Origin: Candidatus Thorarchaeota archaeon
GTDB taxonomy: Archaea > Asgardarchaeota > Thorarchaeia > Thorarchaeales > Thorarchaeaceae
Direction of reading: 5' to 3'
NCBI GenBank assembly: GCA_016839605.1
Contig: JAEOTX010000150.1
Location: forward strand, 1 to 60,506
DNA length: 60,506 nucleotides
Both the position numbers and the translations under genes were made by a program. Positions 3,690-36,650 of the stretch are shown here, one piece after another (positions within the stretch are counted from its first letter, which is position 1; every line of letters starts with the position of its first letter). Below the pieces are notes generated by a model that was not told where the DNA came from, did not search any database, and saw only the letters and a program-made list of their open reading frames with translations.

Positions 3690-4022
3690 ATGGTAGATGT
3701 TGAATATGTATATGCTGGACCACCTAGCAGTTTTGTCTATCGCCAACCTAGATGGTTCCATCAGGTGACCCTCGCAAAGCTGAGGGAGATCACCTGCAAG
3801 ATATTGAAGAAGACTTACGATGCGGGGAGTGATGACCTGTGTCGAGTGGAGACCTTTCCACGAATTGAACCACCCCGTGAGAAGGGCGGTGAGCCTGTGG
3901 TCGTGATGGAGCGGGTTTCTCTACCCACAGCAGCTGGATGGGCACTAAAGACAGCCAAGGAGTATGACTGCGAATGGGCGAGGGACATTCCCTTGCCTGA
4001 TTGTCTGTTCTTCTGGCCATAG
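3690..4022 (+). CDS. hypothetical protein, tandem paralog A
   Basis: 110 aa. Shares with the next ORF: YVY.G.PSSF, ELCRVET, PP.EKGGEP.VV, GWALKT.KE.DCEWAR.IPLPDC. Confidence 0.6.
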   Translation: MVDVEYVYAGPPSSFVYRQPRWFHQVTLAKLREITCKILKKTYDAGSDDLCRVETFPRIEPPREKGGEPVVVMERVSLPTAAGWALKTAKEYDCEWARDIPLPDCLFFWP

Positions 4023-14016: not shown

Positions 14017-14421
14017 TTGGAAGCTACTACTATGAGTGTGCCTAAGAAGGAAAGAAGTATCAGTGCCAATGATCTATTGAGGTTCATCCTTGAACTCTGG
14101 GCCCTTGTTGCTTTCGGTTACTGGGGTTTAGACCAAGATCTTGGACTGCTAAATTATGCTCTCATGCTGATTCTTCCAATAGCAGTTGCAACTGTGTGGG
14201 GAATCTTTGCCGTTCCAAACGACCCAAGTAGGTCTGGCGGTGCACCAGTTCCTGTTTCAGGAGCTGTTCGCCTTTTGCTCGAATTTCTAATTCTTGGTTC
14301 TGCAGCTTGGTCAATGTATGTAGTGGGATTGTTGTATCTCAGTTTGATATTCGGAACTCTAGTCATCATTCATTACATATTTGCCCATGAGAGAATCAGA
14401 TGGCTTCTGAACACCAAATAA
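14017..14421 (+). CDS. small integral membrane protein (YrdB/DUF2568-like, tentative)
   Basis: 134 aa with four hydrophobic helices. The start may be ATG 14032 (MSVPKK). Confidence 0.5.
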   Translation: MEATTMSVPKKERSISANDLLRFILELWALVAFGYWGLDQDLGLLNYALMLILPIAVATVWGIFAVPNDPSRSGGAPVPVSGAVRLLLEFLILGSAAWSMYVVGLLYLSLIFGTLVIIHYIFAHERIRWLLNTK

Positions 14422-14429
14422 CTGTAGCT

Positions 14430-15317
14430 TCAAGATTGACTAAGAACCTCAGGGACAACTTCTCTGATTGTTTGAAGTGACTCCATTACCTCTTCAGTGG
14501 TCAACTCGAATATGAGGGGGCCCTTAAAGTCGTTCTTCTTCAATTCTAGAAGGAAATCCCGAACAGGTAGTTCTCCCTTCCCGATGATGAGATGATCCTC
14601 ATACTTGCCTGGAGTTCCTGTATCGATGCCATCGTTGAGATGAACTTCCACTATCCTATCACGATGCTGCCTATAGAACTCAAGAACAGACTCATCACCA
14701 GACTGTTTTGTAAGGGCATGCCCGGTGTCAAAACAGATGCCAGTGTCATGTTCATCTATTATGTCACGTGTGAAATCGAAGGGAAACTCGATATTCTCGA
14801 TGGCCAGCTTCCGAGGATCTATCTCTGTCTTGCTGATAATTTCATCCACACTCTTCATCGAGAATGAGGTCATATATCCGCAGACAAGGAGATTCATGGC
14901 TTCAGAAGTTTTGCTCCTGAGAAACTCAGCTGCCAGTGAACCAGAAGTATGGAGGACATAAGCCTCAGGTTCTAGTGGCTCCGACGTCTTGATTGAGTGG
15001 CAGATGCTCTCGACACCGCCTGTTCTGATGAAGTCATTAAAAGTAGCCAGCTCGATTGACCATAGAGGGAGATGTACTGAGTAAGAGTGACCAAGCTCAT
15101 CCTTCAAATCAACAAGTTTGGAGATTACTTCTGGCGTAATAGAACCAGGCACCATGTGCTCCATCTCAATGGTGAGCTCGACCACTTCGATGTGCTCTAT
15201 TCCCACGACTTCCCTTACAATGTCCACTAGGTTTAGACGGGAGAAGTCTGGAACGCCGTCTGCCAGAATCCGCTGAACGGCTGGCAGGAACTCAATAGCG
15301 ACTGTTCCAAATCGCAT
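14430..15317 (-). CDS. sugar phosphate isomerase/epimerase (xylose isomerase-like TIM barrel)
   Basis: 295 aa. VHLPLW, ICFDTGHA, EVHLNDG and ELPVRDFL.ELKKNDFKGPLIFE match the AP-endonuclease-2/TIM-barrel family pattern. Confidence 0.7.
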   Translation of the reverse strand: MRFGTVAIEFLPAVQRILADGVPDFSRLNLVDIVREVVGIEHIEVVELTIEMEHMVPGSITPEVISKLVDLKDELGHSYSVHLPLWSIELATFNDFIRTGGVESICHSIKTSEPLEPEAYVLHTSGSLAAEFLRSKTSEAMNLLVCGYMTSFSMKSVDEIISKTEIDPRKLAIENIEFPFDFTRDIIDEHDTGICFDTGHALTKQSGDESVLEFYRQHRDRIVEVHLNDGIDTGTPGKYEDHLIIGKGELPVRDFLLELKKNDFKGPLIFELTTEEVMESLQTIREVVPEVLSQS

Positions 15318-15335: not shown

Positions 15336-17489
15336 TCAGAATAGACCAGCAAGCCAGGCATGTACCTCTGCAATCAGTGGGAGGAACAGAGTTGCTGTGA
15401 GTGTTATCACCACTAGCAGTGTGTTGATTGAGGGGCCAGCTGTGTCCTTGAATGGGTCTCCGACCATGTCTCCGGTTACAGAGATATCATGAACTCGATG
15501 CCAGTCATCAGTTCCCTGTTCATATGTGGTGTATTCGGGCGACTCGATGATCTTTTTGGTATTGTCCCACGCTCCTCCAGCGTTGTCCATCAAAAGGGCC
15601 AGTATCAGACCTGCCATGACGGCACCACCTAGAAAGCCTGCCAGAGCCTCAAGCCCGAGAATCACTCCTGTGGCGAGAGTCACAGTGATTGCAATCAGAG
15701 TACCGGGCATTAGCTCTCGGATGGACCCAGATGTTGCAATAGCGATGCACCGATCATAGTCAGGCCTTGATGTGCCCGCTAGAATACCAGGGTCTTCATC
15801 GAACTGCCTGCGAATCTCAGTAATCATCCTCTCCGAGTTCCGCTCAACACCGAGAATGAGGATTGCAGAGAATACCACTGGCACCAGAGCGCCAATCAGG
15901 GCGCCCGCCAGAACTGCTGGGTCTGCGAGGTTCACTACAGTGAGACCCTCTATTCCTACTATATTGAGTGTGTCTGTTGACTCGATATATGCCGCAAAGA
16001 GTGCGAGTACTGAGATTGCAGATGCACCTATTGCGAATCCCTTTGTGATTGCCTTGGCAGTGTTTCCACTCGCATCCAACTTGTCACAGGCTATAATTGC
16101 CTCCCTAGATGCCTGAGCCTGTTCTATGACACCCCTTGCATTGTCCACAATCGGGCCATATGCATCAGCACTCATGATCATGCCATTAGTTGACAGAAGC
16201 CCTACGGCTGCAATGGCCACACAGTAGATGCCGCCCTCCCATTCTCCAAACTCTAGTCCAGCACCAAGGAGGTAGGAAACCACCATAGCAATTGCGATTC
16301 CAATGACAGATGGTACAACACTCAACAGTCCGTATGAGTATCCAGACAGAATCAGGTTCGCTGCACTCTTCTCTGCTGACTCGACCATCTTAGGCACGGG
16401 CTTGAAGCCTGCGAATCCTCTATCGCTGGTAAAGACATCACTGGTGAAACCAATGAATACTCCTGCAAGGAGTCCGATAATGGCTGCTCCTGCAATGATG
16501 AGGCTTAGACCAAGGGCAATGACTGTTACGATTGCAAAGACCGCAAACAGGATGGTTGTGATATAGGTCCCCATATTCAGTATGGGGCCAGGATCTTGGC
16601 CCTCCTTTGGATTGACAAGGAAGACTCCCAAGACTGATGCAATAGCTCCAAGAGCTGCAATCATGAGAGGCAGAAGCGCAAAGGGAAGGGCTGGAGCAAA
16701 GTGGAGGTCTATTCCTGCGCCCAAGATTCCTGCTGCAAGGATTGCAGCCACATTGCTGTCATAGATGTCGGCTCCTGTACCAGCTACATCTCCCACGTTG
16801 TCCCCGACAGCGTCAGCCACTGCAGCAGGATTTCGGGGATCATCTTCAGGGATGTGATGCTCAATCTTGCCAACAAGATCCGCTGAGAGGTCTGCTGTCT
16901 TCGTATAGATTCCTCCTCCAGCCTTTGCAAACAATGCTACAGTGCTTGCTCCAAATGAGAACCCAGTTATGATCTCCCATAGACCAGCCGGGCGTGGAAT
17001 CACGACAAAGATTATGTCAGGCAGTAAGTTCCAGAGCAGGTAAAGTGACCCGAGACCTACGAGTGCAATTCCTGCAATCATTAGACCCATGACAGAACCT
17101 GCTCGGAAAGCTACCTTAAAGGCAGGATTCAGCCCACCTGAGGCTGCCGCTGCTGCTGTTCGGCGGTTCGCCTTTGTTGCCACTACAACTCCAATGAATC
17201 CAGCTGCCATGCTGGCTAGTGAACCCAGGAAGTAGGAGATCGCTATTGGAATGCCAAAGTCCCTGAAAATGAGAGCGATCAAGACTGCAAGAATGATTGT
17301 GAATATTGTAAGAATACGATACTGAACCTTGATGAATGAGTAGGCACCGTCCTCAATGAGCGCACTCACCTCACGCATTTTCTCGTCGCCTTCATCCGCT
17401 TTGTTTACCATGTAAAAGATGTAGAGAGCAACGAATATTGACAAAAGACCTGAACCTATTGCTACGCCAAGGAATAGAATGGCCGACAT
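15336..17489 (-). CDS. hppA: membrane-bound H+/Na+-translocating pyrophosphatase
   Basis: 717 aa, polytopic. Diagnostic motifs GGGIYTKTADLSADLVGK, DNVGDVAG, DAYGPIVDNA, GNTAKAITKGFAIGSA-like, DNAGGAWDN and GDMVGDPFKDTAGPS. Confidence 0.96.
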   Translation of the reverse strand: MSAILFLGVAIGSGLLSIFVALYIFYMVNKADEGDEKMREVSALIEDGAYSFIKVQYRILTIFTIILAVLIALIFRDFGIPIAISYFLGSLASMAAGFIGVVVATKANRRTAAAAASGGLNPAFKVAFRAGSVMGLMIAGIALVGLGSLYLLWNLLPDIIFVVIPRPAGLWEIITGFSFGASTVALFAKAGGGIYTKTADLSADLVGKIEHHIPEDDPRNPAAVADAVGDNVGDVAGTGADIYDSNVAAILAAGILGAGIDLHFAPALPFALLPLMIAALGAIASVLGVFLVNPKEGQDPGPILNMGTYITTILFAVFAIVTVIALGLSLIIAGAAIIGLLAGVFIGFTSDVFTSDRGFAGFKPVPKMVESAEKSAANLILSGYSYGLLSVVPSVIGIAIAMVVSYLLGAGLEFGEWEGGIYCVAIAAVGLLSTNGMIMSADAYGPIVDNARGVIEQAQASREAIIACDKLDASGNTAKAITKGFAIGASAISVLALFAAYIESTDTLNIVGIEGLTVVNLADPAVLAGALIGALVPVVFSAILILGVERNSERMITEIRRQFDEDPGILAGTSRPDYDRCIAIATSGSIRELMPGTLIAITVTLATGVILGLEALAGFLGGAVMAGLILALLMDNAGGAWDNTKKIIESPEYTTYEQGTDDWHRVHDISVTGDMVGDPFKDTAGPSINTLLVVITLTATLFLPLIAEVHAWLAGLF

Positions 17490-24026: not shown

Positions 24027-25880
24027 AAACTTATATCCTTCAGTGATGTGAAAATGATAGGAGTTCAAATCATTTCTGGCAAACAGAACAGGGAGTGAAC
24101 TCTCAAAGAAACAGGTCAGAAACTTATATCCTTCAGGTGAAATGAATGGGTCGCTCTAGTGGTCTGATTGTCAGCGTTAAGATTCCGATACGTTGGGGCA
24201 TGATGACTAAGCGTCAGAGAACCCGACTCAATCAGATAACTGGAAGGGACAGTAGAATCATCAAAGCCTATCTTGGAGTAATTGAACGTAATGAAACGGA
24301 TTTACTAACAAGTGGAAAGCTGAATCGGGTTAATGTAAGTAAATTGGATAAACTCACGTTGACAGCTTCAAGGGGAGTGGCAGAAAGACATTATGTGCTT
24401 CACGATTTCAAGAAGCGATTTACAAATATCTCAGTAAATGAGTTTCAGGAGTGTAGGGATACTGCAGTCGCGATGTGGCAGAGCTATCTAGAAAAGGGCG
24501 GTTCCAAGCCCCTGAAGGCAAGAGGATACACTTCGAGGAAGATACCTCGATTTGTCTTCAAGCAACGATTCGAGTTTATCTACACACCTGATAGAGAAAT
24601 TAAGCATTGGCTTGTAATCCGGGATTCTCTTGATTCGTCCCGCCGGAGCAGCAGAATCCATGATAAACTTGCAATTCCATTATCGCCCTCTTCCTATCAT
24701 CTCAATAAAATGAATGAAGGGATAGTCAAAACTGTCCGTCTTTTTAGGGATTCGACCCGAAAATGGTGGGCAATATTCACGGTTACTCTACGTGTCGAAT
24801 CACTTCATTCCTTAGGAAAACCATCTGCAGTTTTTGCAATCGACCTCGGGATCAAAAAGACTGCTTGCACTGTGCTTCTCACTCGAAGTGGGTACAAGCA
24901 CGTTCGATACTGGAGGCAAGGTAAGAAAATTGGGCACATGAAACGCTACGACAAACGAGTCGCATGCCTTCAGAGAGAGAAGGAAGACCTGCTCAAGATG
25001 AATAAGGATACTCACGGCGTTGCAAAGGAACTTCGTGAGCTCAATTGCAAACGAAATAGAATAAGTATCGAATATGACAGGAAGTTGGTCAAAGACCTTT
25101 GTGACCACATCCTAGAAATCTCTGAGAAATTCGATCTGTATGTTTGCATTGGAAGAGTCAAAGGAATCCGAAACAGGGCGCGCAAGGGAAATCATAGGGG
25201 TCGCGCGTTTAGAGGAATGATTCACAGGTGGTCCTTCGCTAGAGTGAGTGAAATTCTCAAGCATAAGCTGGAAACTCTTGGATATAATTCAAGGAGGTTC
25301 TATTCAGCTCCAGAAGCGTGGACATCTATCATGTGTCATAAGTGTGGACACAAAGGAATGCGACCAAAACAGAACCTTTTCATCTGTCACACCTGCGGAT
25401 ATCGTGCAAATGCCGACCTGAATGGCGCTATCAATATTGGTAGACGTCATATCATGCTCATCCCTTCACTTAGAGATGAGAAGAAAGGACTAGGAATGTG
25501 GCTTCTTCCCAAGGAAAAGGCCACTCTGAAAGCCCGGAGGAAGAAATCTTCTTCTAAAAGGAAGTCCTCACTCTCCCAGAGGGGCCCAGCCTCAGTAGGA
25601 GAGTCCGTGGCTGATTGCTATGACCAGACTTCAGTTGTGGAGTTTGCGAGCAGTAAAGACCTCGCCATGGTAAAAGCTGTGGAAACACCGTCTGCATCCA
25701 GCAGCTCTGGTAATGTTGAATCAATGCAGCGGACAGAAGCCGGGTCCCGAAAGAGGAACCATGTTCCAGTGAAATCGGGCAAAGCTCACGTCATTTTGAA
25801 ATACAATGGTCTTTCGAAAGCTGGTGACAGCAGTCGTGAGAAGGGTGGAACACAGGAGTTTCTTGATGGTTTACTCACCA
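24027..25880 (+). mobile_element. IS200/IS605-family, tnpB-only element (E1); ends approximate
   Basis: Conserved 5' hairpin module and 3' block are shared with the second copy at 29246..31155. No tnpA is present. Boundaries are inferred only from where the two copies stop resembling each other. Confidence 0.6.
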
Positions 25881-25903
25881 ATACAAGAAGTGGGTCTTCA
25901 TAG
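24146..25903 (+). CDS. tnpB: TnpB-like RNA-guided nuclease homolog (OrfB/IS605 family) with long Ser/Lys-rich C-terminal tail
   Basis: 585 aa. RuvC-I FAIDLGIKK, zinc ribbon CHKCGH..CHTCGY and RuvC-III NADLNGAINI are present. At the canonical RuvC-II hhhExL position the sequence reads CIGRVKGI. Confidence 0.9.
   Translation: MGRSSGLIVSVKIPIRWGMMTKRQRTRLNQITGRDSRIIKAYLGVIERNETDLLTSGKLNRVNVSKLDKLTLTASRGVAERHYVLHDFKKRFTNISVNEFQECRDTAVAMWQSYLEKGGSKPLKARGYTSRKIPRFVFKQRFEFIYTPDREIKHWLVIRDSLDSSRRSSRIHDKLAIPLSPSSYHLNKMNEGIVKTVRLFRDSTRKWWAIFTVTLRVESLHSLGKPSAVFAIDLGIKKTACTVLLTRSGYKHVRYWRQGKKIGHMKRYDKRVACLQREKEDLLKMNKDTHGVAKELRELNCKRNRISIEYDRKLVKDLCDHILEISEKFDLYVCIGRVKGIRNRARKGNHRGRAFRGMIHRWSFARVSEILKHKLETLGYNSRRFYSAPEAWTSIMCHKCGHKGMRPKQNLFICHTCGYRANADLNGAINIGRRHIMLIPSLRDEKKGLGMWLLPKEKATLKARRKKSSSKRKSSLSQRGPASVGESVADCYDQTSVVEFASSKDLAMVKAVETPSASSSSGNVESMQRTEAGSRKRNHVPVKSGKAHVILKYNGLSKAGDSSREKGGTQEFLDGLLTNTRSGSS
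25839..25880 (+). ncRNA. conserved 3' block, candidate omega-RNA scaffold end / right-end element of E1
   Basis: AGAAGGGTGGAACACAGGAGTTTCTTG..GGTTTACTCACCA is nearly identical (26/27 and 12/13) to 29246-29291 on the minus strand. There it lies downstream of the tnpB stop. It contains the hairpin GGAAC-ACAGGA-GTTTC. Confidence 0.4.
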
Positions 25904-25977: not shown

Positions 25978-27684
25978 TCATGAATCACCCTCTCGAAGTT
26001 CAAGTACAATTCCTTGGTACGGTTCAAGATAGATGCTGGTGGCCCGAAGTGGTTTTGAGTCCAAAAGAGTTGAGAACAGCAAGCTTCTCTTCCCTTTTGC
26101 ATCATCAGTTTGAACTGGTTTGTTGGAAAGGTTCAGCCAAACCTGCACTACTTGTCTATTGTGTCTTCGTTCATATGTGAGAAGGGTTTTCTTGTTCATA
26201 GGCTGCTCTAGAACGTGCATAGAGCCAGAGTGTAGAGCAGGGGTGTTCCTACGGAGTCGCAGGAGGTTTCTATAGCAATGTAACAATGAATCCGACTCTG
26301 ATTCCTCAACCTCTACATTGATTGTTTCATATCTTGCTCCTGCTGGCAACCATGGCTTTGAATCTGCGGGACAGAATCCTGCGTTTAATGATGAATTCCA
26401 TTGCATAGGAGTCCTGCAATCATCACGATTAAGCGAAAAGGAGCCATCTCTTACTAGCAGATTGACTAGCAGTTGATGATACCAACGAAACCTCAAAGCT
26501 ACAGGATCCTGTGCAGTCTTGATAGGCAATCTATGATTGAACATACCAATCTCTTCACCATAATAGATGAAGGGGACGCCTCTTGCTGTCAACTGCAGCG
26601 TCGTATTGAGTTTCGCCTTAACCAGATCATTTCCCAATTTGCTGATTCGGCGTATCTGATCGTGGTTGGAGAACACCCAGGTTGGAGTATATGGTTCATT
26701 GAAGTATTCCTCGTATTTATTGATTATATTCCGAAGTGTGCTTGCATTAAGATTGGCGTTAAGTGACTGAAACAGGAATACAAGATGTAGTCCATTAGTC
26801 TGGTTTTTGTCAACTTCTTCACCACAGTATTTCTTGAGGGTATCAAATGATGCAGCAATTTCACCTACTAGGAACCGTTCAGGGTCCGAATACTCATCCA
26901 TCACGCTTCTAAGTTCCTTGACAAAGGCGAAATTGTCAGGATGGTTAATTGTGAAGATTTTATTCTGAAAGAGGCTTTTCTCATCCTCTTCGGAGGGGAA
27001 GAGCTTCCAAGCAAAAGGATTGTTCTGAAGCTGTTCATCTTCGAATATTGTATTGATTATGTCTAGGCGAAATCCATCAACCCCCCTATTCAACCAGAAT
27101 CGGACAGTATCAAACATCTCCTTCTTCACGTCAGGATTCCGATAGTTGAGGTCTGGTTGAAAGGGCAAGAACTGAGCCCAATACCACTGATCTGTCACAT
27201 CATCATAATGCCAACCTGAACCTCCAACCATAGATTTCCAGTTATTAGGAGGTTTCCTACCACCGGACTTTTTCCCATCTCGCCAAATGTACCAATCACG
27301 TTTTGGATTCTCTCGACTTAAGCGCGATTCTAGGAACCATGGATGCTGGTCACTTGTATGATTCAGCACCATATCAAAGACAACATACATGGCCCGATTA
27401 TGAATCTCCTGAATTAGTCTGTCACAATCAGCCATCGTACCATACTCTGGTGCTATATCTCGGTAGTTGCTCACATCATACCCATGGTCTGTTTGAGGGC
27501 TTGAAAAAAAGGGGGAAAACCAAATGGTTTCAACCCCCAAGTCCTGTAGATAGTCCAGCTTTGTGATTATTCCAGGAATATCACCAATCCCATTACCTGT
27601 ACTGTCCTTGAAGCTTCGGGGATAGATCTGATACACAGTGGTTCGCTTCCACCATGGTAGGTTTCTAGTCTTTTCATCTGGCAT
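25978..27684 (-). CDS. GH13 alpha-glucosidase / oligo-1,6-glucosidase family
   Basis: 568 aa. WWKRTTVYQIYPRSFKDS.GNGIGD, DLGVETIWFSPFF, DGFRLDII, GEI and FSNHDQ are GH13 conserved regions I-IV. Confidence 0.9.
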   Translation of the reverse strand: MPDEKTRNLPWWKRTTVYQIYPRSFKDSTGNGIGDIPGIITKLDYLQDLGVETIWFSPFFSSPQTDHGYDVSNYRDIAPEYGTMADCDRLIQEIHNRAMYVVFDMVLNHTSDQHPWFLESRLSRENPKRDWYIWRDGKKSGGRKPPNNWKSMVGGSGWHYDDVTDQWYWAQFLPFQPDLNYRNPDVKKEMFDTVRFWLNRGVDGFRLDIINTIFEDEQLQNNPFAWKLFPSEEDEKSLFQNKIFTINHPDNFAFVKELRSVMDEYSDPERFLVGEIAASFDTLKKYCGEEVDKNQTNGLHLVFLFQSLNANLNASTLRNIINKYEEYFNEPYTPTWVFSNHDQIRRISKLGNDLVKAKLNTTLQLTARGVPFIYYGEEIGMFNHRLPIKTAQDPVALRFRWYHQLLVNLLVRDGSFSLNRDDCRTPMQWNSSLNAGFCPADSKPWLPAGARYETINVEVEESESDSLLHCYRNLLRLRRNTPALHSGSMHVLEQPMNKKTLLTYERRHNRQVVQVWLNLSNKPVQTDDAKGKRSLLFSTLLDSKPLRATSIYLEPYQGIVLELREGDS

Positions 27685-27840: not shown

Positions 27841-28095
27841 GTGAGTAAGATGAGTTTACTTGGTCCGGATGATTTCGACTTGGATAGAAAAGGGCGAAAG
27901 AAGAAGCTGGCAAAGGACCTGGCTCCTTCAGTTGCGAAGGAAGTTGAAAGATGGCTGGACAGGGAAGACGATCCTGAGGCTTTTAGGAGAGTATCAGAAC
28001 TGGTAGGCCCAGAAGAGGCCGCCCGTTTGTTTGCTAGACGCCGAAAGCATGGTAGAAAATCGAAACCTAAAGACCCTCTACTCGAAGACCAATGA
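27841..28095 (+). CDS. hypothetical basic protein
   Basis: 84-aa ORF with a GTG start and Lys/Arg-rich composition. No motif, so weak support. Confidence 0.3.
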   Translation: MSKMSLLGPDDFDLDRKGRKKKLAKDLAPSVAKEVERWLDREDDPEAFRRVSELVGPEEAARLFARRRKHGRKSKPKDPLLEDQ

Positions 28096-28471
28096 AGGGA
28101 CTACATTGACAGCAAATACCTACGAAAACGATGATAGAACAGAATTGAGCAATATGAGAACCTCGTTAGCATTCATACGCACGATTGATGCGGAGAAAAG
28201 AACACATCTGGCAGAATTGCGAACAGGAATTGGCATGTTGACAATACCGTTGTCCCTTTTGACCATCCTGATAGCGACCTCAAATTATTATTCAGTCAGT
28301 GATGTGCTGACTCTCATAGCTGGCCTTGCTATTGGTATAGTCATACTCCTTCTGATTGGCGCTCATCTAGTGTTTTCATCTCTCAGAAAGATTCGTGGAG
28401 ATGACCGCCTTCGAACAGCATGTGATGACCTTTCGAATTTAGTGGCAGAGTTCAACAACCACGATGAGTAG
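28031..28471 (+). CDS. DUF202 (YidH-like) membrane protein
   Basis: NMRTSLAFIRT...EKRTHLAELRTGIG resembles the DUF202 double (E)RT.LA..RT motif and is followed by two to three TM helices. The start is uncertain (28031, 28049 or 28154). Confidence 0.6.
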   Translation: MLDAESMVENRNLKTLYSKTNEGTTLTANTYENDDRTELSNMRTSLAFIRTIDAEKRTHLAELRTGIGMLTIPLSLLTILIATSNYYSVSDVLTLIAGLAIGIVILLLIGAHLVFSSLRKIRGDDRLRTACDDLSNLVAEFNNHDE

Positions 28472-28557: not shown

Positions 28558-28860
28558 ATGACAACGAAACTCAGAGTCACTGTGATAAGGAAATTCAGCC
28601 CAGAGGAGATTTTTGGCCACGAGATCATGCGAGATGGTAAGCCACTACAGCCATGCGGCCATAAGGAAGGAGAGGAGTTCATCGTGGACCACCATTTAGA
28701 CAGGCCAAAGGATTTCTGTGGCCAAGCTTGGCAAGACCTCTATACTACTCTGATGATTTACCACTTTGGAGGGGATTATAACTATCCAGAACCCGGTGTC
28801 ACATACCAGCCATGTGGCGACGGCATGAGGACAGTCATATTCAAAATAGAAAAGATATGA
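28558..28860 (+). CDS. TIGR04076-like small Cys-containing protein
   Basis: 100 aa. LRVTVIRK...CGHKEGEEF.V......P.DFCGQAW.DL....MIYHFGG......CGDGMRTVIFKIEK matches my recollection of that family. Confidence 0.55.
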   Translation: MTTKLRVTVIRKFSPEEIFGHEIMRDGKPLQPCGHKEGEEFIVDHHLDRPKDFCGQAWQDLYTTLMIYHFGGDYNYPEPGVTYQPCGDGMRTVIFKIEKI

Positions 28861-28874
28861 ACTGGGGAATAAAG

Positions 28875-28912
28875 TGGAGCCCCAGGAGGGATTTGAACCC
28901 TCGGCCTCCTCC
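28875..28912 (-). pseudogene. tRNA 3'-half fragment (Thr-like: anticodon-stem 3' strand, variable loop, T-arm, acceptor, CCA)
   Basis: Reverse complement GGAGG-AGGCC-GAGGG-TTCAAAT-CCCTC-CTGGGGC-T-CCA parallels tRNA-Thr GGAGG-AGGCC-GCGGG..CCCGC-CAGGGGC-T-CCA. No convincing acceptor 5' strand or D-arm lies upstream. Confidence 0.55.
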
Positions 28913-29057
28913 TTACTTTCAGAATTATTCATTTTGCTTCCGACACTATACCAAAGAAATGGAGGCTCAAGTGTAGTTGTTAGAATCGTGAGTACAAAAT
29001 GCTGGATAGTCTTCGAAACCTTTATCTCAATATCCTAATCGGACACCAATTACGGAA

Positions 29058-29165
29058 GCCCCTGTAGCTCAGACCGGTTAGATCGCCTCCTTGGTAAGGA
29101 GGAGGCCGCGGGATCTTGTTTCACTTCGAAGCGAGACGCGAATTCGAATCCCGCCAGGGGCTCCA
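29058..29165 (+). tRNA. tRNA-Thr (anticodon GGU) with a 30-nt intron in the T-arm (53/54), CCA encoded
   Basis: GCCCCTG-TA-GCTC-AGACCGGTTA-GATC-G-CCTCC-TTGGTAA-GGAGG-AGGCC-GCGGG-[29113-29142]-TTCGAAT-CCCGC-CAGGGGC-T-CCA. The mature length is 78 nt. Confidence 0.75.
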
Positions 29166-29245
29166 TTTTATTTTGATAATCTCCAGTAGGTTTAAGCCAA
29201 TGAGATTGCCAGTCTGAGCTACTGCTGACCTATAGCTTGCTTCTA

Positions 29246-31155
29246 TGGTGAGTGAACCACACTGCAAGAAACTTCTGTGTTCCACCCTTCTCCTGCCTGT
29301 GTCGCCACCTCCCGAAGTCCAATGGACTTCAGAATTAGCAGGAGCATTGTCTGTCATCATTGGGATGGGATCCCTCCTCCAGACCTGGCCTTCTTCTCCT
29401 GTCTTGATGCTGAGCCATCACTCCCAGCGACAGAGAGAGTTTCCACAGTTCTTACCACGGCAGGGTCATCATCACCTTTCCCAGCTTCATCACTGAAGCT
29501 GAGAAGACTCGTTTGAGCATGGTGAACGGCCGCGGACTCTCCGGGGAATGATGACGATCCCTTCTTGGAGAGTAAGGACTTCCCTCTGGAAGACTTCCTT
29601 TGGGCTTTCGGTCGCGCACGTCGAACCCTTTCTAAGGTTCTAGTCCACAGGCCTAGTCCTCTCACAGAGTGCAATGACTTTGTGAGCGTAAGCATGCGTG
29701 CTGCAATATTGATACTACCGTTTCGGTCTGCATTGGTCTTCTGTCCACAAGATGGGCAGTGGAAGTAGTTCTGCTTGGGTCTCTTGCCCTTGCTTCCACA
29801 CTTCCAACAGATAATGGATGTCCATGCCTCAGGAACAGCTCTGAACCGGGCATCCTTTCCATCGACTTTCCAGTCGAGCTGAGCCAGTCCGTGTTTCAGA
29901 CTCTCAGTTATTCGAGCAAAGGCCCATGAGTGAATCATTCCTCTGAACCTTCGCCCCCTGTAGTTTCCTCGCTTAGCACGCATACGTATGTTCTTCAGGC
30001 GACCAATGGCAACATAGAGTGTGTACTTCTTGGACAAATCAGAGATATAATCAAGAAGCTGACGTACAAGGACTCTGTCATATTCTTTTGCAACCTTCTC
30101 GCGCTTGGAATGTAATCGACCGAGTTTCTTTGCTACTCCTTCATATGGAATCTGACTATTCTTTCTGGTGTGCATCTCTCTCTGCAAATCTGCAACAAGT
30201 CTATCGTATTTCTTGATGATGCTAGTCTTATCTCTCTGGACAAAATAGCACGTTTCCCTTGTCTTTTCAGGGGTGAGAAGAGTTGAACAAGCAGCTTTCT
30301 CGATGCCGAGATCAATCCCGAGTATAGCAAATGGGAGGTCTTTTCTAATAGCTTTACCAAATGCTATGCGGATTGCGAATGTCAGCCACCACTTTCCTCT
30401 TCTATCAGTGAAGATTTGTAATGCCTTTACTTCACCGCGCTTAATCTGGCTAAGATGAAAAGGTGACATTCTGAGAGGAATTCTCAAGCGATCATGATAC
30501 CTTCGACCAGCTGTGGCGGAGTCCAGTGAGTCTCTAATGTCAAGCCACCATCGAGAAGTGGAGGTCTTCTTCTCAATGAGTTTGAACCTTCGAGAGAACA
30601 CCCATCTCGGAATTCTTCGACTGGCACTTATGGAAGTTGGACGGGAAGCATTTCTTCCACTCTTTCTTCTAAGTTTGAGATAGCTCTCATACATTGAAAT
30701 GGCAGTCTGTCTGCATTCGTTCATTTCATTCTGGGAGATTCTTTGGAATCTGACTTTGAAGTCATGTGGAACGCTCATCCTCTGTCTGTATCCTGACTTG
30801 ACCTTGATTGCAGTCATGGTCAACTTGTCAAGCTCGCTGTCGTCAATTCTATCTCTGTTGCGACCTGTGAGCAACTTGTCTTCATGTTGTTCAATTATTC
30901 CAAGAAATGCACGAATTACTCTAGTGTCTCGCCCAACGGTCTGTCTAAGCCTCTGCCTAGTCCTTTCAGTCATGTCCTCCCAGTTAATGGGGACCTTCAC
31001 CGAAACTGTCACACCCTTGGACCGAGCCATAACCAATTCGCCCTTACTATATAAAATTCTGACCCGTTTCCACGTCAGTTGAGTTCACTCCCTTTCTAGT
31101 TCAGAAGGGAGGTTTTGAACTCGTACAATAGTATGAATCATTACTATATAAAATT
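29246..31155 (-). mobile_element. IS200/IS605-family, tnpB-only element (E2); ends approximate
   Basis: Same architecture as E1 in inverted orientation. The 3' conserved block is 29246-29291, the 5' hairpin module is 31081-31122, and 15-nt direct repeats flank the module at 31044-31058 and 31141-31155. Confidence 0.6.
29357..31030 (-). CDS. tnpB: TnpB-like RNA-guided nuclease homolog, second diverged copy
   Basis: The track ORF begins at TTG 31036. ATG 31030 (MARSKGVTVSVKVPINW) aligns with the E1 start MGRSSGLIVSVKIPIRW. GIDLGIEK, CWKCGS..CPSCGQ and NADRNGSINI are present. The RuvC-II position reads AIGRLKNI. Confidence 0.9.
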   Translation of the reverse strand: MARSKGVTVSVKVPINWEDMTERTRQRLRQTVGRDTRVIRAFLGIIEQHEDKLLTGRNRDRIDDSELDKLTMTAIKVKSGYRQRMSVPHDFKVRFQRISQNEMNECRQTAISMYESYLKLRRKSGRNASRPTSISASRRIPRWVFSRRFKLIEKKTSTSRWWLDIRDSLDSATAGRRYHDRLRIPLRMSPFHLSQIKRGEVKALQIFTDRRGKWWLTFAIRIAFGKAIRKDLPFAILGIDLGIEKAACSTLLTPEKTRETCYFVQRDKTSIIKKYDRLVADLQREMHTRKNSQIPYEGVAKKLGRLHSKREKVAKEYDRVLVRQLLDYISDLSKKYTLYVAIGRLKNIRMRAKRGNYRGRRFRGMIHSWAFARITESLKHGLAQLDWKVDGKDARFRAVPEAWTSIICWKCGSKGKRPKQNYFHCPSCGQKTNADRNGSINIAARMLTLTKSLHSVRGLGLWTRTLERVRRARPKAQRKSSRGKSLLSKKGSSSFPGESAAVHHAQTSLLSFSDEAGKGDDDPAVVRTVETLSVAGSDGSASRQEKKARSGGGIPSQ

Positions 31156-31280
31156 ATGAAGACTGCACTATGCATAATTCATGAATATCCTGTTTAAATG
31201 AATAATTTCACCATTTTTCAGGAAATGATATATGTCGAAAAACCCGAATAATTTATTATGTAATTTGCTGATATTGCTCT

Positions 31281-34200
31281 GTGGCGAATACAAGGTATCC
31301 TCGAAGTCCTTCAAGAGTTCTCACAACGGCTTTCAGAATGGCCATGGCTATCACTCTAGCACTAGCCCGCGACAGAGCTTCAGGTATATCTAGACCACTC
31401 TATTTCGGACAGGGAAAGAGAATCGTCGGGATGGCGAAGATTTGGAAGAAAGCAAAGAAAGCCTATCTTAAAACAGTGCAAAATCGCCACCCTGATGCTT
31501 CAGTTCTGCTCCGGGCCGAACATAGTATTCGAAGGAGCTTCATTCGAATCCTACTGAAAACAGCAGTGAGATATGGAAATACAGAAACAAAACGGGTGAA
31601 ACGAGAAGAAGGGAATAAAGGGTATCTGAATATTCTGTGGGACTATATTGGAAGCAGGATTCGAGAAACTGTTGCAGCAAGGTACATCTTCTCTGATCCT
31701 GTCCCTATAGAAATGAGTGACGGGTCTTCAGGAATTGGCTATCCTGGTTCAACAAGATTTCCTGTATATCCAGTTAGACATAACCATCTACCAGGACTTG
31801 ACTTTGGGGATATGATCAGGAGTCCGTTGATGGAGCTTGCTCGACAATGCATGAAATGCGGTGTTTCAATAAGAGAGTCAAAGAAGTACATTGATGCCCT
31901 GTTGTACAGGCTCGTTCCCTTCATGGACTACGTCTATACACAGAGAAGATTCGGAAGGCCAAACTACGTCCGAGATGGACTCAAAGAGCTCAGAATAGTC
32001 GTGGACCAGATCAAGAGGGAACATGGTACAAGAAACGGGCTCCGTCAATCAATCACGTCTGAAGTCCAAGAATCTCTAGATACCGAAATAGACATAGAAG
32101 ATACTCCGGTCCAAGACGAAATCGCGGATTCGATTCGACTTGAAATGAGCCAGAATAAGAAGTCGGATGATGAAACGCATTTTCTGAGAGAGGCTATAAT
32201 ATCAGCACGGAGTGAGGGAACTGTCATTGATGGTCTTCTCCAAGTCGCCGAGGAATTGCTTGATAATGGCACCTTGACCATTGAAGACTCTGAGATGCTC
32301 CTGAACCAGGCAAAAGAACAGAGCAGAAGGATAGGCAGCCGACTCCACAGGTTTGTTTCAAAGAACTTCCAGAGTCCGTTCAATCTGAATGGGATCATCT
32401 ATCATGGAACAGAAATGGCCTATGATAACTCAGGACTCATACTCTTCTCAGAGGTTTCTGTCGATGGAGGAAGAGGTAGGATTGACTTCGTGTTGGCTCG
32501 AGCGAAACAGTTACCTAAGGTCGATGGAGCGCCCTCGCCGGTCTTCTTTGAGCCCTTCTTAATCGCTGACTTGAAGTCCAAGAATGCCTTCGACTTCGAC
32601 ATCTATGGAATGAAATCACGGTCCATAGATGTGAACAATGTTGTCAGTGAGTTTGTCTTGGAACGCAGACCGCTGACCAATGAGGAGTGGGAGAGCGTTC
32701 TATCGAACACTCCTGATGACTATGAAGAAAAGCAACTGGATGTTTATGAAACTGCCATCATCGCTGACTATCAGAACGTGATGCAGAAAGATGTTGACCG
32801 TCAGAAGAAGCTAGCAAAAGCCATCATCGTTGTCGATTCTTTTCAGGACTGGAAAGACATCAGTGAGTCGATTCTCCCCCTCATCATGAGAGCATATGAT
32901 GGATGTGTTGATGGAACTCTCTCTGAGGGTGATTTTCTAAAGCATTCCAACAGGGATTCAAACTTGAGGATTGCTATGAAGATGCTCTCTGTCACTAGAC
33001 CAGTCACAAATACTGTGCCTACAGACATTCCCGTTCCAATGAGTTCTTTCAGTGAGCGGGTTGTTGATGAGAAGGAATTCATCCTCTATCTCACCGTGCC
33101 CGGAAACGCCTCCTCTGCTCAGTCAGCCGCAACGATAGCAGAACGATGGCATAGTCTGGAGTATGTGTATGAACACGCGAAACGACGGCATCGAGATGTG
33201 TACTGGTTTGACCTTGTGGGTGAGTACAATGATCCCATTCTGAGAAAGAAGCAATTCAGACTAAGATATCAAAGTGAACCGATACAGCGGTTCTTCAAAC
33301 GTCGAGTTCGGATGAGAGATATCTCTGACAGTGTCAGGGACTTTGTCTTTGAGGGAGATTCTATTGACACTCTTAGAAACTGCATACACGACATCATCCG
33401 GGGCAGTCGAGATCCCATAGTAGTGGTTTCGGGGTGGGACAATCTTCGCCGAAGCACTCCATCACCGTTCGACAGATATCTTGATGAGATTGTAGCAACC
33501 TTACTGCAATCTCTTCCAAAGAGATGCACAGTCTTGTGGTGTGCGCGCCCTGTACCCATCGCTCAGAACAGCACGACCTATTCCACAAGATGTGTTGCTC
33601 CATTCTACCAAGGGGCACTATTGTCAAACTTTGTTGACACCATCATATGGAACGTAGTCATGCCACCAGATCGAACAGGTGCAAGAATGCCTACGAATGA
33701 CCATGAAAGGGCAATCTTCATCGAACGTGCAGGAGAAGCTCTTGAGCAATCAGTGATTAAAATTGAACCATTGAAAGGATGGGGAGCAAGATTCCGTCCA
33801 GGTGGACGAGAACTGAAACCAATTTTTCACAAAGGAGGAGGCCTATCCATAGCTCAAAGCAGTTGGTATGAAGAGAAACAGCTTGAACGTGCGAGGGGGC
33901 TCTTACCTCATCTTTCAGAAGAACATGAGTATAATCCGGGTCCACGGGCAAACTTCAAGCTTGATGTGAAACGAGTGACCTCTGGATATGGTTCATCAGA
34001 GGAACGACTTCCACTGCTCTCTTTTGCTCCCACGCAGGTCTATGCTCAGAGAAAAGGGGAAGAGGACACTCGAAAGATAGACGTCGATAGAAGATTCCGC
34101 ACTCTATTATCGATTGCTGATATTGACCGAAAAAGAGAGTACAGGGAGATTCAGCTTAAACAGAATCCTCCAATGCGGACAACCCGTCCTCCCTTAGAAC

Positions 34201-36650
34201 GCTTCCTCATTGAAACAGACATAGGCATTTCAAGAATAGTACACACGGAAGTCCAGCGTTTAAGAGAATGCATTTTGTTTCTCAGACAAAGAACAGAGGA
34301 CTATTTGGTACCGTTACTTAATGAGATATCAGGAGTGCTTGAGCGAACAGGTGAGAAAATCGGACCAAGTAATGTCATGACATTTTTGAACACGCTGCGA
34401 CTAGTTCGTCAGATACTGGAAACCAACACTCTGAGTAGAGAAATCTGGTGGCGATTATTCCCATATCGTTCCACAGTGCCAAAGTATCTAGCAAAGCAAC
34501 AGATAGAACACCTGACCTCTATCCAGAAGCGGCATCCAGACATTCTCTTGATAACAGGAAATCACCTCTTTCTCCTACTGCTGGCTGCACATGGGCCATT
34601 CTCGGACGTTTCGTTCACAGATACAATTTGGTCATTATGGGATTATGTTCAGCCATGGCATCTGATCGGTCTTGGATTCAGAGCAGTCTATCCCAAGAGG
34701 CACAGAAGAGGGAGATCCGTCCTTGACAGACACAAGCTCCTGCAGCAAGTGCGGCAGCGCATCACCAAGCACAACAGAATGATAGAGAAACAGACTTCTC
34801 CGACCAATGTGCGGTATGGACAAATAATCTCTCTGCCATCTTCGGGAGCAGCAGAGTCTACCTATCTCTGGCTGCTCTTTCAGAGGCGTTCAGGTACCTA
34901 TGACATGAATGCTGCACTCCTGAACCCTAGAGGAATTGATCCCTCTCTCTCTCCTCAGGACACTCTCAGGGAGATGGTGTCAGAAAAGACCTATTGGAGT
35001 GAAAGCGACCTCAACTTGTTGAGCTGGTACGCGAAGCTGGAAGGCAATGAGAGCAGAATCTCTGTGATGGTGGCTAACCAGCAGGGCTTACAGATTCTTT
35101 GGATAGGTGATAGAGAGCAACGAGTTTGGACTCCTGCTGGAAGGATCCACTACACTACTCGAAAATTTGAAGACGTGACCCTAGTTCGAACTATCACCCT
35201 ATCTGCAGACCCACACCTTCAATCTGTGGACTATGAAGATGTGCGACGACCCGTTCATCGAATAGATGACACAGTAGACACAGCCCTTGTGATTCTCAAA
35301 CACGGACTGGCTGGGTGTACTCCCGTTGTCTGTGAGGTATCTCTTGATGTAGACAACAAGATGTATAGAATCAACTTTGCAGAAAGAAGGACTGGCAAGT
35401 TATTTGGAGAACTTCTAATCAGGAGGACGGCCGATCTTGTAGAGGTTCTCAGACGTCCTGACGCTGAATGTGAGCCAGTCTTGGTAGATGGGGAGCGATT
35501 AACCTGGAACAGGTTCAAGGACATATCTTATGCAGAGGATGTTGCTCTTCTCAGACCGTGGGTGGAACGAATGAATCCCTTCACAGGGCTTGCTCTGAAG
35601 TGTCCGCCCAATGCAGAAGCTCTTCTAGACGCAAGAAAGGAGTTCAACTTTGTCTTGGAACTTCATCATGATCCGTGGACCTGCCCATTGAGGCACACCA
35701 CATTGGACGCGATACAAAAGTCACACAAGCGAGCGCAGGCCATGGGTCACCACTACATGTTTAGATACGCTAGTCATTGGGCAGAACCAGAACGGATCAG
35801 CAATGAACCTGGATTACACCACGGGTCGTGCTGGGGAGTTTACATCAATACACCACAGACTCTCACTCCAGAATTATTGACTCTCGTGGATATTCGCCTC
35901 ACCGATGCTCAAGTTAGATCACTACTGAGTCCTCAGGAACTGGTCTATTGGTCACAGGAGCGAAATGAATGGGTGACACACTCGTTCGAAATAGCATTGG
36001 GGAAGAAGTGTAGTGAAGAGGCAAGAGAGTCCTGGCATATCAGAGCATTGCTGAAGGAACTAATTGGACAGAATCTTGAGCAGAAAACTCCTGGAGTGTA
36101 TCTATGGAATCCTGACCGCTGGAAACCATTCTTCACAATCAAACCTGAGTGTGTTGTGATAGGGCTGACTGAGATTGATTCTGGAGTAGAAAAGACACAT
36201 GTAATTCCTGAAGGACAAGTTGCATTGAGAGAACCATTTGAAGTACAGGATATCCTTGAGCGCGGGATGAAGGAGTTATTGGAGAGAAATGGGATTATTC
36301 CTGACAGGAAGATGACAGCAGCAATACGAGAGGAGATAGCAGCCTCTTTAGAAGTCTTTGGAGTAAGAGAGGGCAAGGCAGCAGTGGAGTTTGATCGAGC
36401 TGAGATAAGGCAGGACTCTGTGGGGGGTAGAGTCATCTATGTTATTCTGACATCAGAAGATGAAACCCATAGAATTCCCGTCACACAACATCTTCATGAT
36501 ATAAAGATGGCTGGACGCATCAGCAGGAACGATTTTGTGAGTGAGGTCTCATCGATACTTGAGGAGTTCAATCTCAGTAAAGAAGACATGGAAAGTGCAC
36601 TGAGCGAATGTGTCAGGTTGATGAGGCAGGAACGGATTATCAAGAAATAG
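31281..36650 (+). CDS. giant hypothetical protein (1789 aa) with a RecB-like PD-(D/E)xK nuclease motif set
   Basis: A single uninterrupted 5.4-kb ORF. Motifs: GRGRID402FVL, IAD430LK432SK, Q485LDVY489. The rest has no motif I recognise and no Walker A. The start is uncertain: GTG 31281, or ATG codons at residues 20 or 51. Confidence 0.8.
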   Translation: MANTRYPRSPSRVLTTAFRMAMAITLALARDRASGISRPLYFGQGKRIVGMAKIWKKAKKAYLKTVQNRHPDASVLLRAEHSIRRSFIRILLKTAVRYGNTETKRVKREEGNKGYLNILWDYIGSRIRETVAARYIFSDPVPIEMSDGSSGIGYPGSTRFPVYPVRHNHLPGLDFGDMIRSPLMELARQCMKCGVSIRESKKYIDALLYRLVPFMDYVYTQRRFGRPNYVRDGLKELRIVVDQIKREHGTRNGLRQSITSEVQESLDTEIDIEDTPVQDEIADSIRLEMSQNKKSDDETHFLREAIISARSEGTVIDGLLQVAEELLDNGTLTIEDSEMLLNQAKEQSRRIGSRLHRFVSKNFQSPFNLNGIIYHGTEMAYDNSGLILFSEVSVDGGRGRIDFVLARAKQLPKVDGAPSPVFFEPFLIADLKSKNAFDFDIYGMKSRSIDVNNVVSEFVLERRPLTNEEWESVLSNTPDDYEEKQLDVYETAIIADYQNVMQKDVDRQKKLAKAIIVVDSFQDWKDISESILPLIMRAYDGCVDGTLSEGDFLKHSNRDSNLRIAMKMLSVTRPVTNTVPTDIPVPMSSFSERVVDEKEFILYLTVPGNASSAQSAATIAERWHSLEYVYEHAKRRHRDVYWFDLVGEYNDPILRKKQFRLRYQSEPIQRFFKRRVRMRDISDSVRDFVFEGDSIDTLRNCIHDIIRGSRDPIVVVSGWDNLRRSTPSPFDRYLDEIVATLLQSLPKRCTVLWCARPVPIAQNSTTYSTRCVAPFYQGALLSNFVDTIIWNVVMPPDRTGARMPTNDHERAIFIERAGEALEQSVIKIEPLKGWGARFRPGGRELKPIFHKGGGLSIAQSSWYEEKQLERARGLLPHLSEEHEYNPGPRANFKLDVKRVTSGYGSSEERLPLLSFAPTQVYAQRKGEEDTRKIDVDRRFRTLLSIADIDRKREYREIQLKQNPPMRTTRPPLERFLIETDIGISRIVHTEVQRLRECILFLRQRTEDYLVPLLNEISGVLERTGEKIGPSNVMTFLNTLRLVRQILETNTLSREIWWRLFPYRSTVPKYLAKQQIEHLTSIQKRHPDILLITGNHLFLLLLAAHGPFSDVSFTDTIWSLWDYVQPWHLIGLGFRAVYPKRHRRGRSVLDRHKLLQQVRQRITKHNRMIEKQTSPTNVRYGQIISLPSSGAAESTYLWLLFQRRSGTYDMNAALLNPRGIDPSLSPQDTLREMVSEKTYWSESDLNLLSWYAKLEGNESRISVMVANQQGLQILWIGDREQRVWTPAGRIHYTTRKFEDVTLVRTITLSADPHLQSVDYEDVRRPVHRIDDTVDTALVILKHGLAGCTPVVCEVSLDVDNKMYRINFAERRTGKLFGELLIRRTADLVEVLRRPDAECEPVLVDGERLTWNRFKDISYAEDVALLRPWVERMNPFTGLALKCPPNAEALLDARKEFNFVLELHHDPWTCPLRHTTLDAIQKSHKRAQAMGHHYMFRYASHWAEPERISNEPGLHHGSCWGVYINTPQTLTPELLTLVDIRLTDAQVRSLLSPQELVYWSQERNEWVTHSFEIALGKKCSEEARESWHIRALLKELIGQNLEQKTPGVYLWNPDRWKPFFTIKPECVVIGLTEIDSGVEKTHVIPEGQVALREPFEVQDILERGMKELLERNGIIPDRKMTAAIREEIAASLEVFGVREGKAAVEFDRAEIRQDSVGGRVIYVILTSEDETHRIPVTQHLHDIKMAGRISRNDFVSEVSSILEEFNLSKEDMESALSECVRLMRQERIIKK

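Follow-up and report, generated by a model that had tools for sequence, protein, structure and literature searches.

The stretch of DNA considered here (the window) comprises 60,506 nucleotides of contig JAEOTX010000150.1, positions 1 to 60,506 of the forward strand, from the Candidatus Thorarchaeota archaeon assembly GCA_016839605.1. It contains a gene of unusual size (31281..36650, + strand) that encodes a protein of 1789 amino acids, referred to below as the giant protein, and this is the signature protein of a two-gene module whose full-length homologues range from 70% down to 24% identity. The second gene of the module (29357..31036, - strand) is divergently oriented and encodes a TnpB-like protein of 559 amino acids, identified by Pfam matches to Cas12f1-like_TNB and OrfB_IS605 and by PDB matches to TnpB and Cas12f. 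Directly past the tnpB stop codon, and extending downstream from it, lies a conserved structured region resembling an omegaRNA (29225..29345, - strand).

The giant-gene reading frame is open throughout its 1789 codons and begins with GTG. An in-frame TGA is found at 31269-31271, four codons 5' of the GTG, and conservation among homologues begins at about residue 7, ahead of the first ATG. With an in-frame stop so close upstream and conservation reaching 5' of the first ATG, the GTG start is credible. The paired tnpB probably starts at an ATG two codons downstream of a TTG. An earlier description of the locus, made by a model from the letters alone (the original prediction), had reported an uninterrupted 5.4-kb open reading frame (ORF), a divergent TnpB gene across an AT-rich spacer and core genes downstream. 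Each of these is borne out: the spacer is 244 nt long with a GC content of 32%, and ftr, a GXGXG (fwdC-like) gene and mch lie 3' of the giant gene.

Pairing of the giant gene with tnpB

The first five giant-gene loci share a single neighbour, a divergent gene of 545-575 amino acids with a Cas12f1-like domain, whilst their remaining neighbours differ (RNA polymerase, FlpD, methyltransferase, ftr-mch). When a TnpB hidden Markov model (HMM) was run over all loci, a minus-strand TnpB-like ORF was found in the same position wherever the upstream DNA sufficed (~2 kb), and at none of these loci did the giant gene lack a TnpB-like neighbour. Apart from TnpB, the loci have no neighbour in common. The two genes are usually separated by ~150-400 bp, the distance rising to ~1.1 kb in a sub-clade that carries a third ORF. 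At loci where the HMM match was weak, an ORF of 715-735 amino acids occupies the same place and carries TNB and OrfB_IS605 domains. There are two types of TnpB, A (~560 amino acids) and B (~720 amino acids), both locked to the giant gene. Near-universal pairing with fixed geometry across loci leads us to reject incidental adjacency to an insertion sequence; giant-protein loci track TnpB, not defence islands.

The third ORF of the sub-clade encodes 226-236 amino acids and is located between tnpB and the giant gene at loci L026 (5298-5978, +) and L041 (5259-5969, +), on the strand of the giant gene and overlapping its start. Searched against Pfam, it gave nothing above threshold. A gap like that at L026 and L041 is also present at L023, L035, L046 and L059.

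A family of giant proteins in Asgard archaea

Although the original prediction described the giant protein as an ORFan, it has many full-length relatives and that status can be rejected: 55 protein clusters, 72 genomic loci and 136 representatives at 50% identity make up the family. The 55 clusters come from a large protein collection, run from 70% to 25% identity and are, wherever named, Candidatus Thorarchaeota. The 72 loci were found by scanning a single genome of each species and belong nearly all to Thorarchaeota metagenome-assembled genomes; a few carry Heimdall- or Promethearchaeota labels. The 136 representatives emerged from an exhaustive profile search of 1.84 billion proteins with the N-terminal domain, and all are large proteins of this family or fragments of them. 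Two short contigs with typical modules bear other labels, L034 (Woesearchaeota) and L053 (Ignavibacteria bacterium), and encode proteins up to 70% identical to that of the window; these phylum labels are most likely binning errors rather than signs of transfer. Proteins P0166 (2239 amino acids) and P0174 (2353 amino acids) are unusually long, exceeding the usual length by 450-550 residues.

Each genome carries 3-7 giant paralogues whose mutual identity is only 24-45%, and contig JAFGAR010000088 alone has three copies. The majority of copies are intact over ~1600-1900 codons. Broken ones are few: L076 (in four pieces), L053, L068 and a remnant at L039. At this last locus, the remains of a second module (14311-15090, - strand, and 15460-15774, + strand) lie ~3-4 kb downstream of an intact one and consist of a C-terminal fragment of the giant gene and a TnpB fragment in divergent arrangement. 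The original prediction had envisaged that the ORF might prove disrupted in relatives, with no sign of purifying selection; instead, most homologous frames are intact at 24-45% identity, and their preservation across such deep divergence implies that purifying selection has acted.

Database searches returned little beyond the family itself. The full giant protein gave zero matches in Pfam, PADLOC, NCBIfam and PDB sequences, and scans of 41 diverse N-terminal halves against Pfam, NCBIfam and PHROGs revealed no recurring family. A profile search of the PDB with the family produced only a spurious match to ribosomal protein S14. With the N-terminal domain, a profile search of a word-indexed database recovered solely fragments of giant-family proteins, and tblastn against plasmids found nothing.

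TnpB and its RNA

In 42 type-A TnpBs the RuvC-I aspartate (D242), a CxxC..CxxC zinc finger and an NAD437xN motif are invariant. The position of the canonical RuvC-II glutamate is occupied by an invariant glycine (G345), and an alternative invariant glutamate (E403) is found ahead of the zinc finger. A TnpB class with this Glu-to-Gly rearrangement of RuvC-II is described, and predicted to be active, by Altae-Tran et al. (2023; PMC10691335). Since the D242/E403/D437 set matches the class described there, the type-A proteins are consistent with an active, rearranged RuvC domain, and the paired TnpB appears from its sequence to be nuclease-competent. Type-B TnpBs retain canonical RuvC motifs.

The 3' flank of tnpB encodes an omegaRNA-like structure, as supported by covariation. 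For type A, 19 non-identical copies share a common fold of 25 pairs, 12 of which show compensatory changes. Within the alignment, 93.9% of cells are paired, against 84% after shuffling and ~48% when the partners are slid, and the observed covariation was reached in none of 500 shuffles. The invariant motif GTTCACTCA (29257..29249, - strand), 100 nt past the tnpB stop codon and with its sole exact match in the window at this position, pairs in the predicted structure with an invariant upstream GGGTGGAAC. It is in register at 28 of 45 loci, either at +97..+104 or just within the end of a read-through ORF. Beyond it, sequences diverge after ~25 nt, following an (A/T)RGGTYA box, and this divergence point is where a guide would be predicted to begin. 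Type-B tnpB genes have a separate conserved scaffold ending in ACAATGAACGGTT.

The window contains a further TnpB-like gene (24146..25903, + strand; 585 amino acids, 44% identical to the paired protein) that has no giant gene beside it. This solo copy shares the 3' scaffold (GTTTACTCA, 25869-25877) and the inverted upstream motif (24092-24100). An alpha-amylase gene (25978-27684, -) and two Pfam-less ORFs (28031-28471 and 28558-28860) occupy the 3.5 kb that separate the solo from the paired copy.

The divergent spacer between the paired tnpB and the giant gene (31037..31280) contains GTTCACTCC (31083-31091, +), inverted relative to the motif beyond tnpB. A TATA-like direct repeat of 19 nt, TTACTATATAAAATT(C/A)TGA, occurs in it twice with 95% identity (31044-31062 and 31141-31159). 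To judge from their resemblance to archaeal TATA boxes, the two copies may be promoters of tnpB and the giant gene.

Domain organisation of the giant protein

Conservation in the giant protein was assessed in 41 non-redundant family members extending down to 24% identity, and its structure was modelled with AlphaFold2 in two parts using 34-sequence alignments: residues 1-900 (predicted local distance difference test, pLDDT, 83; predicted template modelling score, pTM, 0.79) and residues 901-1789 (pLDDT 82.8, pTM 0.68). The N-terminal domain (residues 1-270; 31281..32090, + strand) is modelled as all-helical, with pLDDT mostly above 85, and is a candidate Cas1-like catalytic domain. Residues E80, N117, H167, D177 and R180 are invariant in it, and D174 is present in 40 of the 41 proteins. 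By eye, its motifs EGxxGPLNxLLNYAG and H..LPELDFxDMIR look like the Cas1 motifs PPxDxxNALLSFGY and GFLH...LALDLxEEFR. For comparison, alignments of Cas1 (13 sequences) and Cas4 (12 sequences) were built from annotated plasmid genes. Alignment to Cas1 with hhalign covered 99 columns and brought E80, N117 and D174/D177 into register, H167 falling a few residues away from the Cas1 histidine. A disordered acidic linker is predicted to follow (residues 271-297).

A PD-(D/E)xK (RecB-like) nuclease region is assigned to residues 369-545 (32385..32915, + strand) on the basis of motif invariance and predicted secondary structure. The original prediction had located its motifs exactly, with GRID402FVL at 399-405, IAD430-L-K432 at 428-434 and Q485-LDV-Y489. 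D402, K432, Q485 and Y489 are invariant in all 41 proteins, position 430 is aspartate in 16 and glutamate in 25, position 433 is serine or threonine, and E391 is shared by 39. The model orders the elements as a helix (369-379), strands (386-394, 399-410 and 421-434) and a second helix (480-500), placing D402 on the second core strand, (D/E)430-x-K432 on the third and QxxxY in the helix that follows. This predicted arrangement of a helix, three long strands and a helix fits the PD-(D/E)xK core. No cysteines are conserved in residues 369-545, whereas the Cas4 alignment has four that are invariant.

Residues ~590-840 (33048..33800, + strand) form a RecA/KaiC/RAD51-like domain with a degenerate Walker A motif, as judged by Foldseek and column composition. 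Against the PDB, Foldseek matched RAD51 paralogues and KaiC (E=2e-5, probability 1.00); against BFVD it matched DnaB helicases, primase-helicases, AAA proteins and UvsX. The degenerate P-loop-like fold suggested by the original prediction is therefore supported, and the strands that it named are all present: FILYLTVPGNASS (600-612), VYWFDLVGE (640-648), PIVVVSGWD (712-720) and TVLWCARP (750-757). The Walker A motif reads G608-x-G-S-x-x-[Q/E/N]614-S615, the lysine being replaced by glutamine or glutamate in the typical case and present in none of 34 sequences. As it is missing in every member examined, the domain is probably not a conventional ATPase.

The C-terminal half (residues ~960-1789; 34158..36647, + strand) comprises several alpha/beta domains in a model with pLDDT 82.8. 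It has conserved cysteine and histidine residues (C1351, C1397, H1463-x4-C1468 and H1514-x2-C1517) as well as conserved tryptophan. A Foldseek search of this half against the PDB yielded nothing with E<0.05, and RNase-H-like matches with probability below 0.7 were disregarded as noise.

Ends of the module

Comparisons between modules delimit a unit of ~7.5-8 kb containing two genes. On the tnpB side, nucleotide similarity begins sharply at window positions 29244-29247, just past GTTCACTCAC. On the other side, in pairs such as L011/L012, L027/L028 and L031/L070, similarity stops at or within ~30 nt of the giant stop codon, with unrelated sequence beyond. A conserved motif downstream of the giant-gene stop codon was looked for and none was found.

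Flanking repeats are seen in three modules, and all involve structural RNA genes. At L030, a 60-nt direct repeat, 88% identical, brackets both genes and consists of the last 28 nt of a tRNA-Gly, a 22-nt spacer and the motif; a partial copy lies ~20 nt past the giant-gene stop. At L001, stretches of 22 and 13 nt repeated on both sides represent a tRNA-like sequence (its first 22 nt) and its upstream box. At L022, a 17-nt repeat beside the RNA scaffold (3981-3997 and 11591-11607) corresponds to the universal '1392' region of 16S rRNA, and an intact 16S rRNA gene (- strand) lies from ~11450, ~200 nt beyond the giant gene. The 16S fragment at L022 means that tRNA genes are not the sole structural RNA genes at element ends. 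Further tRNA fragments adjoin the giant-gene stop codon or follow a type-B scaffold. Of 45 loci, ten have a tRNA gene no more than 600 nt away on the downstream side of tnpB, where a rough density estimate gives a chance expectation well under one.

In the window, an intron-containing tRNA-Thr(GGT) gene (29058..29165, + strand; 44 bits with the Rfam tRNA model, and found by ARAGORN when introns are allowed) is located ~60 nt beyond the scaffold and is probably the context into which the module was inserted. Inverted-repeat arms occur here at 28868-28916 (-) and 29094-29172 (+), 87% identical over 30 nt and 91% identical over 22 nt: a fragment like the 3' half of the tRNA-Thr lies ~180 nt away in the opposite orientation. 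An earlier insertion or rearrangement at this tRNA may have left it behind.

Interpretation

The constant pairing with TnpB, the number of copies per genome and the flanking repeats favour a mobile-element factor, which the original prediction had raised as an alternative. The reading that we prefer, at odds slightly better than even (a probability of about 0.55), is that the giant protein is a large DNA-processing integrase/nuclease of a two-gene mobile module (omegaRNA <- tnpB, giant gene ->) of Asgard archaea, mainly Thorarchaeota. Its catalytic roles, its homology to Cas1 and its part in mobility are what we infer.

On this reading, the giant protein would perform both integration and excision. 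The N-terminal helical domain, with E80, H167, D174 and D177, would act as a Cas1/casposase-like integrase, and the PD-(D/E)xK domain, with E391, D402, D430, K432 and QxxxY, might cut or trim DNA ends, much as TnsA does in Tn7 or Cas4 during spacer capture. DNA binding, oligomerisation or the choice of target could fall to the RecA-like pseudo-ATPase and the C-terminal half. Together with its omegaRNA, TnpB would serve as an RNA-guided nuclease whose guide adjoins the element end and which, by cutting empty or target sites, would promote persistence or homing. The TnpB of IS605-type elements acts in this way, cutting at the target or empty site that adjoins the element. Insertions would tend towards tRNA and rRNA genes and could carry with them a duplicated fragment of the target gene, a preference that, by analogy, parallels that of casposons.

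A published counterpart is to be found in Altae-Tran et al. (2023; PMC10691335), who report on two Asgard-linked groups of TnpBs, named Cas1H-Asgard-1 and -2, that occur together with 'Asgard Cas1s (aCas1)'. According to this paper, aCas1 loci are 'often flanked with repeats' and GTTCACTCA is conserved downstream of tnpB; aCas1 is proposed to be the transposase of a distinct transposon family, with reference to Makarova et al. 2020 (CRISPR J 3:156). Since the published loci and ours agree in host, in falling into two groups, in the motif and in the repeats, and the giant protein is the sole conserved partner of these TnpBs, we infer that it is aCas1, and the module is most likely the element known as 'aCas1-TnpB'. 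The original prediction's phrase for the giant protein, a type not yet described, is accordingly too strong, as aCas1-associated TnpBs with the same motif and flanking repeats are already on record there.

Several observations weigh against the interpretation of the giant protein as an integrase/nuclease of a mobile module. Its equation with the published aCas1 is itself putative and not a result. As regards Cas1, the hhalign score of 20.2 (P=0.077) was no better than those of reversed-sequence controls, Pfam and NCBIfam scans of the 41 members contained no Cas1 match (PF01867 included), and the exhaustive search of 1.84 billion representatives gave no bridge to canonical Cas1 at the sensitivity of HMMER. 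The AlphaFold2 model also lacks the N-terminal beta-sandwich of Cas1, beginning with helices and having only a three-strand insert, and cas2 is absent from the precomputed Pfam labels of module neighbours. With a P value no better than controls and negative HMM searches, the relationship to Cas1 is a lead and not a finding.

For the RecB/Cas4-type nuclease proposed in the original prediction, the D...(D/E)xK...QxxxY series is strictly conserved and the secondary structure fits, but neither fold nor profile searches lend support: Foldseek with the 900-residue model against the PDB and BFVD was dominated by the RecA-like domain and gave only RecA-like proteins among the named matches, no PD-(D/E)xK family of Pfam, NCBIfam or PHROGs was matched in the 41 members, and hhalign against Cas4 found nothing in this region.

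Mobility is likewise open to objection. No convincing terminal inverted or direct repeats and no target duplication were found around the window copy. Near-identical copies of the module at different sites, as recent transposition would leave, were not found either. Inverted motifs of ~10 bp, GGTGAGTGAAC (29247-29257) and GTTCACTCCC (31083-31092), bracket tnpB alone, as they do in the solo copy, which means that tnpB and the giant gene may not move as one unit. Finally, the phylogenies are discordant: TnpBs 76-82% identical are found beside giant proteins only ~26% identical (Pearson r 0.37). That TnpB identity fails to track giant-protein identity indicates that tnpB cassettes have been exchanged or homogenised between modules.

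A bolder version of the integrase/nuclease interpretation would have the giant protein be a single-polypeptide integrase-nuclease and the TnpB-omegaRNA complex direct insertion of the element at tRNA and rRNA genes. We regard this as speculative and doubtful. Were it true, the archaeal lineage closest to eukaryotes would possess a natural system of RNA-guided transposition that does not depend on CRISPR, and the tRNA and rRNA fragments that follow the scaffold and recur at the other end would be a guide/target pair.

The wider significance is that a compact, well-bounded Asgard module locks an apparently active TnpB and a structured guide RNA to a protein of 1.8 kilo-amino acids (kaa), in which a candidate Cas1-like integrase, a RecB-like nuclease, a RecA-like pseudo-ATPase and ~830 residues without a known fold are joined. 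Cas12 and Fanzor both descend from TnpB. If the two genes of the module cooperate in targeting, they would offer a new route to RNA-guided DNA insertion, and possibly a view of how Cas1-type integrases came to be associated with RNA-guided nucleases.

Alternative explanations

The rival that survives best is that the pair is a domesticated RNA-guided system, fixed as a host or selfish effector with no transposon involved, in which TnpB-omegaRNA finds a target and the giant protein provides a nuclease or scaffold for defence, regulation or DNA processing. Strict pairing in a fixed geometry across deep divergence is what such a system would show, as is a conserved structured guide RNA; moreover, neither gene belongs to a recognisable transposase family and genomes do not hold near-identical copies. 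Domestication sits poorly, however, with several deeply diverged paralogues per genome in unrelated contexts, with the occurrence of decayed copies and with direct repeats of tRNA and rRNA fragments at the flanks. Solo tnpB cassettes with the same ends, together with the lack of defence-island neighbours and of any PADLOC match, point the same way, and we consider this explanation unlikely, if a serious one.

The inverted motifs that enclose tnpB alone suggest another arrangement, in which the giant gene, whether cellular or selfish, is specific to the lineage and the DNA upstream of it is a preferred landing site for a TnpB-only insertion sequence bounded by GGTGAGTGAAC and GTTCACTCCC. Adjacency would then reflect target preference. 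In keeping with this, the ~10-bp motifs surround both paired and solo copies, and tnpB cassettes 75-80% identical in nucleotides are found next to giant proteins ~26% identical in protein sequence. A landing site would, on the other hand, be expected to be empty at times, and no giant gene lacks a TnpB-like neighbour among loci with enough upstream DNA. Two very different types of TnpB occupy the same position in the same orientation, and the blocks of similarity and the flanking repeats enclose both genes, all of which makes this account rather improbable.

Matches to DnaB helicases, primase-helicases and UvsX in BFVD and to RAD51 paralogues in the PDB raise the question of whether the giant protein might serve an integrated plasmid- or virus-like element in replication initiation or recombination and not in transposition. 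The unit is just ~7.5-8 kb long, with two genes and no further element genes; polymerase, primase and capsid genes are not linked to it, and the Walker A motif has no lysine. We think this quite improbable. Least probable of all is the standalone single-protein defence nuclease preferred in the original prediction, which has in its favour the conserved PD-(D/E)xK motifs and, as in some defence proteins, a large multi-domain architecture with an NTPase-like domain, but which we reject because the giant gene is never alone and, wherever upstream DNA suffices, always has its TnpB partner, PADLOC families are not matched (nor are those of Pfam or NCBIfam), the neighbourhoods are varied and mostly housekeeping with no conserved defence genes, the Walker A lysine is missing, and the gene is present as several paralogues per genome, with decayed copies among them.

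Comparison with known systems

Among RNA-guided elements, the module shares with the IS200/IS605/IS607 (OMEGA) group a TnpB with a 3' omegaRNA, a guide predicted to lie beside the element end, and solo tnpB copies with the same ends. It differs in having no TnpA of the Y1 or serine-recombinase kind, in its divergent 1.8-kaa partner and in a unit length of ~7.5 kb. The resemblance to Tn7-like and CRISPR-associated transposons (TnsA, TnsB, TnsC) is one of analogy only, residing in the combination of a PD-(D/E)xK nuclease, an NTPase-fold domain and an RNA-guided protein. In the module these functions are fused, the TnpB is apparently nuclease-competent, no DDE transposase is recognised and no homology was detected.

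The nuclease region itself recalls RecB/Cas4 nucleases (Cas4, AddB, the C-terminal domain of RecB, lambda Exo) in its order of motifs, E...GxxD...(D/E)xK[TS]...QxxxY, on a helix, three strands and a helix. Unlike these, it lacks the Fe-S cysteines of Cas4 and profile similarity, and is embedded in a giant polypeptide.

Casposons insert beside the 3' ends of tRNA genes (PMC8464041, PMC6977970), and the module has in common with them and their casposases an archaeal host, a tRNA-gene insertion context and the candidate motif order E...N...H...D..D/E. Here, PolB is absent, no terminal inverted repeats of the whole unit were found, and TnpB is a partner. The giant protein is also six times larger than casposases, with additional nuclease and RecA-like domains and no detectable sequence similarity.

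The closest counterpart is aCas1-TnpB, as presented in PMC10691335. The Asgard host is the same, as are the strict linkage of TnpB to one partner, the existence of two TnpB groups, GTTCACTCA downstream of tnpB, the Glu-to-Gly change in RuvC-II with its alternative Glu, and NADxN. Flanking repeats, found here at L030, L001/L008 and L022, were not found for the window copy, and the giant protein showed no significant similarity to Cas1 in our analysis. There is also a difference over the RNA: the published text considers that the guide might be what precedes GTTCACTCA, whereas in our predicted structure GTTCACTCA pairs with GGGTGGAAC inside the scaffold. On the evidence of that text, this kind of element is already known from comparative genomics and has never been studied experimentally. 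Even a conservative reading of the present results adds to it a domain map of the giant protein, candidate catalytic residues to mutate and the location of the elements at tRNA and rRNA genes with fragments of these at their ends, along with GTTCACTCA as a paired part of the scaffold, the shuffling of tnpB cassettes and the sub-clade with a third ORF.

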